Below, piece after piece: positions 33 to 9,968 of a stretch of 10,145 nucleotides of DNA. The stretch is from an uncultured Deinococcales bacterium. GTDB lineage: Bacteria > Deinococcota > Deinococci > Deinococcales > JAAFIG01. The DNA lies in the NCBI GenBank assembly GCA_964244895.1, contig CAXTKV010000006.1, positions 45,106-55,250 on the forward strand, given 5' to 3'. Below the pieces are notes generated by a model. It was not told the origin of the DNA and ran no database searches. It saw only the letters and a program-made list of their open reading frames with translations. The first letter of the stretch is position 1; the number at the start of each line of letters is the position of its first letter. A program made the position numbers and the translations under genes.

Positions 33-89
33 AGACCGTCCCGAACGCGAATGCTCGAGGCTCGAGAAGGCCGTGTGGGACGGTGTTCT
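33..89. repeat. Inverted ACCGT-N5-ACG box pair, 35-bp class
   Basis: Cores cgtcccgaacg (37-47) and cgtgtgggacg (72-82); 72-89 is the exact reverse complement of 2493-2510. Confidence 0.8.
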
Positions 90-93
90 CTCA

Positions 94-181
94 CAGAACG
101 AATGCGAGGATTCTCGTCCACGACGGGGGTCTCGGAAGGCAGGTCTATGACCTGCCCTCGCCTCGAGACGAGTTCGATCAC
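94..181 (+). repeat. Degenerate partial copy of the ~130-bp REP doublet element
   Basis: 121-181 aligns without gaps to 2376-2436, both ending in ttcgatcac; hairpin ggcaggtc-tat-gacctgcc (138-156) lies at the position of the right REP stem; the left REP is missing. Confidence 0.6.
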
Positions 182-209
182 CAAAGAACCGCACAGTTGA
201 ACTTTCCAG

Positions 210-270
210 GAACACCGTCCTGGACGCAAATTCCATTGATTCAGAAACACCGTGTACGACGGTGTTTTTT
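210..270. repeat. Inverted ACCGT-N5-ACG box pair, 35-bp class; right box doubles as a terminator-like hairpin
   Basis: Cores at 216-226 and 251-261; aaacaccgt-gtacg-acggtgttt (245-267) runs into a T tract. Confidence 0.8.
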
Positions 271-312
271 CACTGCTCGATTTTTGAACGCTCAGGTTAT
301 GCTCGAGAACAC

Positions 313-2304
313 ATGGACATTCCAGACCGCATTCAGGATTTGCGCGAACGCATCGAGCGCGCCAACCGCCTCTATCACGAACTGGACGCGCCGGAGATCA
401 GCGACGCGGAATACGACTCGTTGATCCGCGAACTGAAAAAGCTCGAGGAGGAACACCCGGAGTTGATCACGCCGGATTCGCCCTCGCAGCGCGTGGGCTC
501 GAGCCCGGTGGTCAGCACTTTCGCGCCGATCAAGCATCCGACGCCGATGACCAGCCTGGACAACGCGTTCAACCTGGCTGACCTGGAAGGTTTCGAGGAC
601 AAGATCAACAACGTCATGGGCGTCAAGGGCGTGCAGCGCGAGTACATCTGCGAACTGAAAATTGACGGGCTGTCCATCAATATTTTGTACAAAGCCGGGA
701 AACTGGTCTGGGCGGCCACGCGCGGCGATGGTGAAACCGGCGAGGACGTGACCACCAACATCCTGACCATCGCGGGCATTCCGCGCGCGTTGCCCGAAGC
801 CTACGACCTGGAAGTGCGCGGCGAGGTGTACCTGTCCAAATCCGAATTCGCGCGCATCAACGCGGAACTCGAGGAAAACGGCCTACCGACCTTCAAGAAC
901 CCGCGCAACGCCGCCGCCGGAAGCTTGCGCCAGAAAGACGCGTCCGTGACGGGCACAAGGAACCTGAACGCGTACTTTTACGCGCTGGGGTCTCACCGGG
1001 GATTGCCCATACAGACGCAATCCGGGCTGCTCGAGTTCCTGGGAAAAATGGGTTTTCCCGTCTCAGAGAATTCCGCCGTGGTCGAAGGGCCGGCGGGCAT
1101 CGAGGCGTACCACCAGAAGATGGAGCACGAACGCGCCAGCCTGGAATTTGACGCGGACGGATCGGTCGCCAAGGTCAACGATTTGCGCTTGCAGGACGAA
1201 CTGGGCTTCACCGCTCGCGCGCCGCGCTGGGCGATCGCGTACAAGTTCAAAGCCGAGGAAGTCACGACCCTCTTGCGCGCCATCACGATTCAGGTCGGAC
1301 GCACCGGCAAGATCACGCCCGTGGCGGAACTCGAGCCGCGCATGATCGAGGGTTCGGAAGTCAGCCGCGCCACCCTGCACAACCAGGATTTCATCACGGA
1401 ACTCGATCTGCGCGTCGGCGACCGGGTGCTGGTGCGCAAGGCGGGCGGCATCATCCCGGAAATCGTGCGCGTCACGACCGAGGAACGCGCCCCCGATTCC
1501 ATCCCGTTCGAGTTCCCGACGCACTGCCCGGAGTGCAACACGCCCCTGGAACGCACGGGTGCGCACCACTTCTGCCGCAACGACGCCTGCCCCGCCAAGG
1601 AGTTCGAGCGCATCCGCTACTTCGTCTCGCGCGGCGCGATGGACATTCAGGGCTTCGGCGACGAACGCATCCGGCAGATGCTCAAAGCGGGGCTCGTGAC
1701 CGACGCAGCGGATCTGTACGCGCTCTCCGTCCCGCAGCTCGCGGCGCTCGAGCGCATGGGCGAGAAAAGCGCGCAGAACCTGATCGCGCAAATCGAGGCC
1801 AGCAAAACCAGAGAACTCTACCGGTTGATCGTCGGGCTGGGCATTCCGATGGTCGGCGAGAAAATCGCGGCGCTGCTGGAACGCAACTTCCCGAACTTGC
1901 GCGCCGCCATGAACGCGACTGAAACGCAACTGTCACACATCTCCGGGCTGGGGCCGACGATTGCGGCATCCCTGGTGCGCGCCTTTCAGGACGACCGCAT
2001 CAACACCCTGATCGAAAAGATCAGTGCGGCGGGCGTCAACACCACCAGCAATTCCGAGCCGCTCGGCACGCAACTCGCCGGGTTGACCTTCGTGCTGACG
2101 GGCGCGCTGGCGCACCCTCGCGACGAGATCACATCCAGGCTCGAGAAACTCGGGGCTCGCGTCACCGGTTCCGTCACCAAGAAAACCAGTTACGTCGTGG
2201 CTGGCGCGGACGCCGGATCGAAACTCCTCAAAGCCCAGGAACTCGGCGTGACCGTGCTGGACGAAGACGGACTCGAGATGCTGCTGACCGAACGCGGCGT
2301 TTAG
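313..2304 (+). CDS. ligA: NAD-dependent DNA ligase
   Basis: [26 protein letters not shown] adenylation motif, [34 protein letters not shown]...C zinc finger, HhH repeats, C-terminal BRCT ([11 protein letters not shown]). Start placed at ATG 313 (MDIPDRI), 663 aa. Confidence 0.98.
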
Positions 2305-2314
2305 ATCGGGCCTC

Positions 2315-2444
2315 CTGCGAACGTCAGTCTCGAAGACGCGTTCGCGCGAGGGCAACCATCAAGGTTGCCCCTACAGGACAGGGTTTTGTAGGGGTAGGGC
2401 TTGTCCCTACCCTTCCCTCGGGACGTATTCGATCACGTTCGCAG
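2315..2444 (+). repeat. ~130-bp palindromic element with two oppositely oriented GTAG-type REP hairpins (REPIN/MITE-like), copy 1
   Basis: Terminal inverted 10-mers ctgcgaacgt (2315-2324) / acgttcgcag (2435-2444); minus-strand GTAG+GGGCAACC-N5-GGTTGCCC (2350-2374); plus-strand GTAG+GGGTAGGG-N5-CCCTACCC (2388-2412); 2345-2384 identical to 10032-10071. Confidence 0.88.
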
Positions 2445-2492
2445 CAGGTCTATTTGCGGTTGCCTCGCCGAAAGTGGTGGAGGTGAAGTTCA

Positions 2493-2542
2493 AGAACACC
2501 GTCCCACACGCAAACTCTGATATGCGTGCTGGACGGTGTTTT
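2493..2542. repeat. Inverted ACCGT-N5-ACG box pair, 25-bp class
   Basis: Cores 2500-2510 and 2525-2535; 2524-2541 is the exact reverse complement of 6437-6454. Confidence 0.85.
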
Positions 2543-8006: not shown

Positions 8007-8042
8007 GGACGCTCGAGTCCGTTCGGATCGAAAGTCATTCGC

Positions 8043-8106
8043 AAAAAACCGTCCAGGACGAAAGAATCCGGGACGGACGCCACGATTTTGAATCCTCGAC
8101 GGTTTT
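8043..8106. repeat. Degenerate ACCGT-N5-ACG box cluster
   Basis: aaaaccgtccaggacg (8045-8060) with partial partners aatccgggacgg (8065-8076) and aatcctcgacggtttt (8091-8106). Confidence 0.6.
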
Positions 8107-8245
8107 GGTGACCGCTCTAAAACTCAGTTCTGGTGCTTGCGCGAGCCGCCAGTGATGGGCCGGTAGGCCGCTCTGAAGTGCGCCTCCAAAAGAATCGTTC
8201 GTGCGGCGCGATGCCGTGGATCGGTGCGCTCGGGGCGTTTCAGGT

Positions 8246-8292
8246 AAGAACGCCGTCCTGGACGCATGCGGGCTCTCGCGTCCAGGACGGTT
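8246..8292. repeat. Inverted ACCGT-N5-ACG box pair, 25-bp class
   Basis: Cores cgtcctggacg (8254-8264) and cgtccaggacg (8279-8289). Confidence 0.82.
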
Positions 8293-8370
8293 CCGGTGTG
8301 CGCCAATCCTTTGAAACCTCGCTTTGAACGCGAATGGTCGCTCGAGCAACCCGACGGAACCCAAAGCGCC

Positions 8371-9819
8371 TCAGGTCGTCAGATCGAACGGGCGCTCGCC
8401 CAGCCCGGTGCGCTCGGGCGGCGCGGGCGGCGAGCCCTGAAGCTCGGGCAGCAGCTTGCCCGGATTCATGATGCCGTGCGGGTCGAAGGCCCGTTTGACG
8501 CGCCAGAAGGCTTCCAGGGTGGCCCTGGGCGTGGCCTCGGTCATGAAGCCGCGCTTCATCAAGCCGATGCCGTGCTCGCCGGACAGCACGCCGCCGTGTT
8601 TGATGGCCACCCGCGCGATCTCGTGCGCGAACTCGTCCACCACATCCACGGAATCCACGGCGCGGTTGAACAGAATGTTCGGGTGCAAGTTGCCGTCGCC
8701 AGCGTGCCCGAAAATCGCGAACGGAAACTGCGGGTAGCGCTGGCTGATGGCCTGCATCTCGCGCATGGCGGGCTCTAAATGGCTGCGCGGCACGACGATA
8801 TCCTCGTTGAAACGGTGCGGTCGGATGTTGCCCAGCGCGGGCGACACGCTGCGGCGCGCCTTCCAGAGTTGCGCGGCTTCCTCCGGGCTGGCGGCCAGCT
8901 TGACCTCGCGGGCTCCGGCCTGGCGGAAGGCGTCCGCGACGGCCTCGATTTCTTGGGTCACGATGCTCGCGTCGTCGCCGTCGCAATCGGAAACGAGGAT
9001 CGCTTCGGCGTCCGTCGGCAAACCCATCTTCACGAATTGCTCGACCGCTTTGATGCTGTTCTGATCCATCAATTCTAGTTTCGCGGGCGTCAGACCGCGC
9101 GCCGTGACCAGCGCGACCGCCCGACCGGCCTGCCCCAGATCGTCGAAGACCGCGAAAGCCGTGCGCGCGAATTTGGGGATCACATCGAGCTTCAAAACCG
9201 CGTCCGTCACGAAAGCCAGCGTGCCCTCGGAACCGATCAGCAAGCCCGGAATGTCCAGCCCGGAACGATCCATGCGGTAGACCGAGCCGTCTGCGGTCAC
9301 GAACTCGAGTTCCAGCACGCTGTCGCTGGTCACGCCCTTTTTCAGGCACTGCGGGCCGCCCGCGTTCTCGGCGATGTTGCCGCCGATGGTGGACTGGCGG
9401 CTCGAGGCCGGATCGGGCGCGTAGTACAACCCGAACGGTTTGGCCATGGCGCTGATCGCGTCCGTGATCACGCCCGGTTGCGCGAAGGCCACGCGCTGCT
9501 GCTCGTCAATTTCCAATTTCGTCATGCGGTTCGTGGCGATCGTCACGCACGGCCCGACCGGAACCGCTCCGCCCGAGAGGCCAGACGAACCCCCGCGCGG
9601 CACGACCGGGAAGCGGAACTCGTGACAAATCTTGATCGCCTCCGCCACGTCCTTGGTGGTTTCCGCGATCACCACCGCGACCGGGGCTGGCCCCTGCGCG
9701 ATCGCATCGTAACGGTAGAGCAGCGTCTCGACCGGGTTCGTTTTGAGCTTGTTGCCCAGCGCGGATTTCAGCCGCTCGAGCAATCCGGGCGGCGCGTGAT
9801 GGGTCGGTGGGGCGCTCAT
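8371..9819 (-). CDS. FAD-linked oxidoreductase, GlcD / D-2-hydroxyacid dehydrogenase family
   Basis: [82 protein letters not shown]; start placed at ATG 9819, 482 aa. Confidence 0.93.
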
Positions 9820-9825
9820 GGCTTC

Positions 9826-9831
9826 AGTATG
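9826..9831 (-). promoter_or_regulatory. Candidate -10 CATACT, leaderless promoter of GlcD-like gene
   Basis: Minus strand reads CATACT-gaagcc-ATG (6-nt spacer), no SD. Confidence 0.5.
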
Positions 9832-9909
9832 ACGCACCGAGCCGCGCCTCACCGTGGACTCGAGCGCGGTTGGCGCACGACACGGCAAATCCCGATCTCG
9901 AGCGTTCAG

Positions 9910-9968
9910 GGAGACCGTTCCGGACGCATATTTCAGGATGCGAAAAAGACCGTTCAGGACGGTCTTCT
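9910..9968. repeat. Inverted ACCGT-N5-ACG box pair, 35-bp class
   Basis: Cores 9916-9926 and 9951-9961; right box aagaccgt-tcagg-acggtctt is self-complementary, same architecture as 210-270. Confidence 0.8.

Follow-up and report, generated by a model that had tools for sequence, protein, structure and literature searches.

An intergenic sequence element of an uncultured Deinococcales bacterium was analyzed, starting from a window of 10,145 nucleotides (C6:45106-55250, the whole stretch covered by a first-pass annotation) in an assembly of 5.12 Mb (328 contigs, 91% complete, 62.7% G+C). The element is built of short boxes, which mostly stand in inverted pairs (doublets). The box is a dyad site under purifying selection that originated, at least in part, by substitution, and a copy is found within approximately 1 kb of most positions in the core chromosome. 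The strongest feature is even spacing at the kilobase scale, which is beyond the view of a reading confined to a sequence window. Tentatively, the boxes are interpreted as a lineage-specific chromosome-wide mark that may work like a DNA uptake signal, tagging the core DNA of its own kind (probability of approximately 0.4).

Boxes were searched for with a weight matrix trained on the pairs, and the reversed genome served as a control. At a cut-off of 12 bits, 4,860 boxes were found versus 64 in the reversed genome (76-fold excess), and at 16 bits, 4,041 versus 8 (about 500-fold). The 4,629 boxes detected at 13 bits (0.9 per kb) form 1,674 doublets, which contain 3,348 of them, as well as 1,192 singles and 29 larger groups; such elements occur approximately once per 1.8 kb. 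The intergenic counts rest on 4,528 genes predicted by the gene caller of this analysis. Only 249 of the 4,041 boxes (6%) fall in called genes. The paired box had been said to occupy most intergenic regions; among 3,304 regions of at least 50 bp this is true of boxes of any kind (2,191) but not of doublets (1,542).

The consensus of the box is GAGAACAC-CGT-CCNGS-ACG, where GAGAACAC is the outer flank and CGT-CCNGS-ACG is the core, whose earlier description as a dyad was borne out. The five central letters differ among boxes as proposed, but they are not free, being mostly CCNGS. On each side of a box, 4 or 5 letters are followed by a YYYRRR hexamer, often CTCGAG, and the stronger flanks of doublet boxes point outward.

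In the genome, the plain pattern CCGT-N5-ACG ... CGT-N5-ACGG gives 480 pairs with cores 25 bp apart, 58 at 26 bp, 283 at 35 bp, and 89 at 36 bp, with 0–8 pairs per distance beyond 45 bp. Doublets found with the weight matrix have spacings of 25 (742), 26 (123), 35 (486), 36 (182), 34 (31), 30/31 (46), 41 (19), and 24 bp (15). Exact spacings of 25 and 35 bp had been claimed from the window; the two main classes stand, but they are really 25/26 and 35/36 (1,533 of the 1,674 doublets), accompanied by minor classes at 30/31 and 41. The two peaks are accounted for by the YYYRRR hexamers that flank the boxes of a pair: in the 25/26 class one inner hexamer is common to both boxes, and in the 35/36 class there is one hexamer per box. 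A shared hexamer between two 5-letter flanks would give 27 bp; such doublets are rare (5) even though no flank is commoner than this one, which suggests a constraint on the length itself. The lengths had also been described as about one helical turn apart, which agrees with the step of approximately 10 bp between the classes; however, there are two peaks and not a ladder, with no class at 15 or 45 bp. The 15-bp class had been suggested by a degenerate partner at position 8065 of the window, which scores −4.5 and −8.6 and is not a box, and none of 2,505 strong left boxes has even a weak partner 11–21 bp away.

The analysis of even spacing covered the 181 contigs rich in boxes (3.89 Mb) and excluded those poor in boxes. 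The mean spacing of the elements is 1,783 bp, with a coefficient of variation of 0.64. Only 151 neighbour distances are shorter than 600 bp versus 642 for random intergenic placement, and the elements repel one another out to about 1 kb. Intergenic regions with another element within 500 bp are occupied at a frequency of 0.33 versus 0.53 expected after correction for length and orientation, and those with another element 500–750 bp away at 0.45 versus 0.61 (same correction); when the other element lies at 1.5–3 kb, occupancy is 0.83–0.85 versus 0.71–0.73. Restricting the analysis to confident genes leaves the effect in place, and it is seen in each gene orientation (divergent, tandem, and convergent). 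The share of doublets climbs with isolation from 49% to 86%. On the two sides of long genes, upstream and downstream, the exclusion is of about the same strength, and it shows no relation to codon bias, which indicates that it follows distance and not transcription. The spacing of CTCGAG is near random, and the evenness is therefore specific to the boxes. The rare coding elements sit in the largest gaps: the median distance from 42 of them to the nearest intergenic element is 1,256 bp, whereas randomly chosen coding positions give 623 bp (p=2e-7). This mutual avoidance over approximately 1 kb and the filling of the largest gaps by coding copies are new here.

The origin of the boxes was examined within genes. 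In coding DNA, 43 boxes reach at least 24 bits versus 0–4 in three synonymous shuffles, and 90 reach at least 20 bits versus 10–14. Among 77 coding elements, 22 have an ortholog of at least 45% identity in the DNA of relatives that was examined. Gap-free alignment was obtained for eight of the 22; among these are boxes in a GntR FCD domain (31 bits) and in alanyl-tRNA synthetase (AlaRS; 30.8 bits), and a 34-bp pair in a MiaA-like gene (the GntR and MiaA labels are from Pfam, that of AlaRS was read from the sequence). The occurrence of boxes in gap-free protein alignments indicates that they can arise by substitution. Another six differ by no more than two residues, too little for an insertion, and thus 14 of the 22 cases leave no room for one. 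Flanks of elements often include the stop codon of a gene, with distance peaks at 4 and 6 bp; of 30 such stops that could be compared, 15 coincide with the stop of the relative, and 57% lie within one residue of it versus 71% in 116 control genes.

One orthologous intergenic site was compared (L029, 80% identical over 1.5 kb), and it is filled in the relative as well. All 26 core and flank letters and the 14-letter length of the spacer are kept there, while the spacer itself differs in 9 of its 14 letters and the N5 centres differ in 4 of 10. The two arms of a doublet differ at 4–5 of 19 positions. Spacer sequences vary as first described (703 of 741 distinct in the 25-bp class, 485 of 485 in the 35-bp class), although nearest neighbours are somewhat closer than in column-shuffled nulls (1.98 versus 2.50 and 5.51 versus 6.97, respectively). 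In contrast, a true GTAG REP (repetitive extragenic palindromic) family of this genome contains 73 copies, out of 149, that are identical to another copy. No target duplication was detected: there is no covariation of flanks (top z 2.9), and CTCGAG stands on both sides in 7 cases versus 17 expected. A Y1 transposase family present in 16 of 18 relatives was not found in the 91% complete assembly. These results, together with the de novo origin of some boxes within genes, give no support to the suggestion that the box is a recombinase or transposase target. The family behaves unlike a copied repeat or a terminator.

The boxes are confined to one lineage in the material examined. With a looser pair pattern, the studied genome gives 538 matches and the 363 other genomes searched within the phylum give 0–3 each, which is approximately the level of the backward control; none of the 363 belongs to the same genus. 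An apparent excess in relatives G002 (11 matches) and G006 (16) was rejected, the 20 sites examined being mostly coding or low-scoring. No variant motif was found in samples of 120–780 kb from five relatives and a pooled sample of two more. Scans of sequence collections gave no match in viral contigs and, with a strict pattern, one in metagenome contigs, and a collection of genome contigs gave at least 24 scattered single matches of mixed spacing. No description of the motif letters, of Deinococcus uptake sequences, or of Deinococcus intergenic palindromes was found in the literature, most subscription journals being outside the coverage of the search.

Within the assembly, boxes are absent from plasmid-like and island contigs, that is, they are rare in horizontally acquired DNA, as uptake sequences are; for single contigs, this absence could also reflect contamination of the bin. 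On the contigs without boxes, which reach 55 kb in length, a RepA gene, defence genes of the BREX and ABC-3C types, and clusters for sugar use were found. Contigs C5 and C15 (L068-L072) have box-free stretches of 55 kb and 39 kb in which CTCGAG is kept at 3.5–3.8 per kb; since C15 has the RepA gene, these stretches are plasmid-like or foreign to the bin. No polarity of the boxes was seen against a GC-skew proxy for the replication strand, which is a weak test.

It is quite probable that a dimeric protein binding double-stranded DNA reads the boxes and that two dimers cooperate at a pair. A phased double site for such a protein had been proposed at the outset, and it is still preferred to both an RNA hairpin and common descent from a single copied element, although no protein was found: codon bias, paralog expansions, neighbours of triple boxes, and pilus genes yielded no candidate binder. 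According to the favoured reading, each box would be read on double-stranded DNA by the dimeric protein, with two dimers binding a pair cooperatively. In DNA exchange between relatives, fragments with a site would have an advantage, either during uptake or during recombination, and sites would accumulate until most 1–2-kb stretches hold one, a second site nearby adding little.

An uptake-like bias is preferred because only the uptake signal sequences (USS) of Pasteurellaceae such as Haemophilus and the DNA uptake sequences (DUS) of Neisseria combine such density, evenness, origin, and absence from acquired DNA in the parts of the source available to us (PMC2817400), and also because the spacings of Haemophilus USS pairs are concentrated in two spikes, which likewise result from overlap of the extended motif (PMC1852404). 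The accessible text gives densities per kb of 0.80 (USS) and 0.89 (DUS) (PMC2817400). The boxes, at approximately 0.9 per kb, resemble both in being more even than random and in having no insertion origin (PMC2817400, PMC1852404, PMC3458573, PMC2397512). In the same portions of these reports, further traits of uptake sequences agree with the boxes: they are tolerated in genes, are rare in acquired DNA, form inverted pairs near gene ends, and have two pair spacings from flank overlap. They are typically 200–1,000-fold over chance, a range to be set against 76-fold (12 bits) or about 500-fold (16 bits) for the boxes.

Several points weigh against this reading. In the sections consulted, known uptake sequences are non-palindromic and lie within genes in 34.5–65% of cases (PMC2817400), and their pairs act as terminators, while one DUS suffices (USS/DUS literature). 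The boxes have a dyad core, only 6% of them are in genes, approximately three quarters are paired without a terminator signature, and there is no ComP match. Doublets without such a signature need a cooperativity that uptake signals do not show. The boxes therefore fail strict membership in USS/DUS on palindromy, coding share, and terminator function, and would be uptake-signal-like at the genome scale. ComEC, DprA, and type IV pilins are present in the genome, but competence genes occur in 10–11 of 14 control genomes and are so common that their presence says little. A ComP-type receptor was detected in 0 of 19 genomes, with a control search equally silent, and a large pilus-tip-like protein of the genome is also present in two relatives that lack the motif. 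As for the substitution argument, 8 of the 22 coding elements lie in linkers that differ by at least three residues in length, one gap-free case is an old peptide common to relatives, and the conservation of intergenic boxes was followed at a single orthologous site.

Some genes of the pilus and competence type were noted in addition. A minor-pilin cluster (C49:7414-11728, L127) encodes a 728-residue protein with no Pfam or PDB match, which is found in 3 of 18 relatives with this query. Two near-identical major pilin genes are located at C170:8783-9687 and C78:18142-18513, the C170 copy being second in codon bias. Several secreted helix-hairpin-helix (ComEA-like) proteins also rank high in codon bias.

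As the driver of the coverage, a nucleoid organiser is a close rival of the uptake-like bias. In this possible alternative, the boxes would be sites for an intracellular sequence-specific chromosome organiser, with two dimers per pair that anchor, bridge, or load factors; the pairs would be bound in helical phase over an AT-rich linker at intervals of approximately 1.8 kb, and the coverage would be kept by selection and not by uptake drive. The substitution and spacing evidence serves it equally, and it explains the dyad and the doublets better. It is consistent with the dyad core, the step of approximately 10 bp from 25 to 35 with 24 and 27 rare (15 and 5), doublet spacers of 56–61% A+T versus 42% in intergenic DNA, the chromosome-wide coverage with soft exclusion, and three boxes (C17:6095-6257, L136) in the interval separating rpoB from rpoC, which are very long and run in the same direction. 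On the other hand, no binder was found, the DNA-binding proteins ranking highest in codon bias being HU and CRP-family proteins of the ordinary kind. The density of element pairs climbs smoothly to a plateau without a preferred loop size, no 10–11-bp phase was seen between neighbouring elements (119 distances), there is no link to high expression, and 18 relatives of the family do without boxes. To our knowledge, there is no precedent for thousands of such organiser sites. A bolder formulation, which we consider less likely than not, is a categorically new chromosome code, in which a sequence-specific protein acting as paired dimers at approximately 2,900 even addresses would organise or safeguard the whole core chromosome at a 1–2-kb grain; the addresses would have been built by point mutations in a single genus, with a force sufficient to change residues of AlaRS, MiaA, and GntR.

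Descent of the pairs from an old miniature element of the REP/REPIN type is improbable; in this reading the copies, since diverged, would have been spread by a single-strand nuclease that was lost or is missing from the assembly. Such an origin would fit the fixed doublet spacings, the extragenic position near gene ends, the strong hairpins, the spacers closer than their shuffled nulls, and the eight coding cases in length-variable linkers. Its best point is arm covariation in the 25-bp class (3.85 mismatches between real arms versus 4.30, with rare variants matched 2–4 times above chance); this covariation is strand-symmetric and could reflect arm-to-arm copying in short quasi-palindromes or a single-strand hairpin role. 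The 35-bp class shows no covariation (5.35 mismatches in real arms versus 5.33 in swapped arms). No flanking RAYT or Ssn gene was found in the 91% complete assembly, and the sole GIY-YIG match lies in a 613-residue frame, apparently UvrC-sized. The missing transposase proves little, since the assembly is incomplete and its GTAG REPs are likewise without a detected RAYT. Against a copied element stand the nearly all-distinct spacers (versus twins in the GTAG REPs), the gap-free coding copies, and the lack of target duplication. Moreover, the boxes repel one another to approximately 1 kb, whereas REPIN doublets are approximately random beyond 200–400 bp in the part of the report available, although close REPIN clusters are somewhat under-represented (PMC3116915). 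The boxes and REP/REPIN sequences share, in the same part, extragenic inverted doublets with fixed spacings that are able to fold (PMC3116915); the boxes differ in having no invariant copies, no GTAG or CGTC tag before a hairpin of their own, and no RAYT found, as well as in kilobase-scale repulsion and substitution-built coding copies. In tag, homogeneity, and placement, therefore, they do not qualify as REPINs. Spacing and origin can thus distinguish a family of REP-like appearance from true REPs.

That the pairs are RNA hairpins ending or stabilising transcripts is very unlikely. The elements do lie close to stop codons (of 191 convergent cases, 54% are no more than 25 bp away versus 28% expected), occupy convergent regions best (363 of 575), and have folding energies of −20 to −30 kcal/mol, with the stability to be expected of any inverted repeat. 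However, doublets also occur in 209 of 627 divergent regions, boxes stand between rpoB and rpoC, G-U is not favoured over A-C on the transcribed strand (498 versus 552 in 426 elements, 364 versus 446 in 282), there is no U-tail asymmetry (3.43 T in the 8 nt after the stem versus 3.49 at its mirror image), none of six long hairpins was called a terminator, and no Rfam family matches (three weak hits, all far below the gathering score).

Two other known systems were compared, again from the accessible parts of the sources. The Neisseria dRS3/NTS sequences with the SsnA nuclease are likewise an abundant interrupted palindrome, and the box core contains CGTC; in the boxes, CGTC is part of the dyad and not a tag before a hairpin (PMC11893778). 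The unexplained Acidovorax ebreus motif GCTTAT(N)5AAGCG is also an intergenic N5 dyad near gene ends, but it has another sequence, 114 reported copies, and no 25/35 pairing or even spacing in the accessible text (PMC5217627). The USS pair classes (PMC3458573) and a table of motif pairs (PMC5217627) may bear on the novelty of the boxes. Evenly spaced, substitution-built genome-wide marks are established in two bacterial groups, Pasteurellaceae and Neisseria, in the text available (PMC2817400, PMC1852404). A palindromic paired mark in a distant lineage would, if true, be a third independent uptake-signal system with another receptor geometry, or a sequence-addressed chromosome organisation.

In the window, the six pairs first described were recovered with the same coordinates and spacings. 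Three belong to the 35-bp class: 29..90 (cores 37 and 72; 18.4 and 26.5 bits), 208..269 (cores 216 and 251; 27.6 and 21.6 bits), located approximately 50 bp upstream of ligA, and 9908..9969 (cores 9916 and 9951; 17.9 and 24.7 bits), upstream of a FAD-linked oxidase gene; the right box is two-sided in the last two. The doublets of the 25-bp class are 2492..2543 (cores 2500 and 2525; 26.7 and 29.8 bits), between convergent genes, 6435..6486 (cores 6443 and 6468; 26.6 and 23.7 bits), whose left outer flank contains the TAA stop of a gene ending at 6438, and 8246..8297 (cores 8254 and 8279; 24.2 and 10.9 bits), with a degenerate right outer flank. A single box on the plus strand is located at 8042..8060 (core 8050; 23.4 bits). 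The genes of the window are of the housekeeping type (NAD-dependent ligase, FemAB-family gene, HPPK, FAD oxidase).

The window also contains an AT-rich open reading frame (ORF) of 140 residues with no Pfam match (5043-5465). A contig from sequencing run X1 aligns on both sides of this ORF and not across it, which suggests a variable slot. Contigs of the same run resemble several genes of the window, and many pieces match boxes with other spacers. In addition, a separate 141-nt repeat is present at 2311-2451 and 9998-10138 (82% alike); it consists of two inverted GTAG-type REP hairpins within GCGAACG...CGTTCGC ends. Genome-wide, 149 GTAG REP-like copies were found at 112 loci, with no Y1 transposase found in the assembly. 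Another small element, at C52:6761-11075, combines an integrase-like part, a helix-turn-helix gene, and a PIN-like neighbour (labels read from the sequences).

The hexamer CTCGAG was not found described as an iterated palindrome in the literature, most subscription journals again being outside coverage. It occurs in 21,883 copies in the genome, 12.7-fold over composition, and at 4.6–6.6 per kb in the sampled relatives (G002-G006, G015), being a family-wide iterated palindrome.

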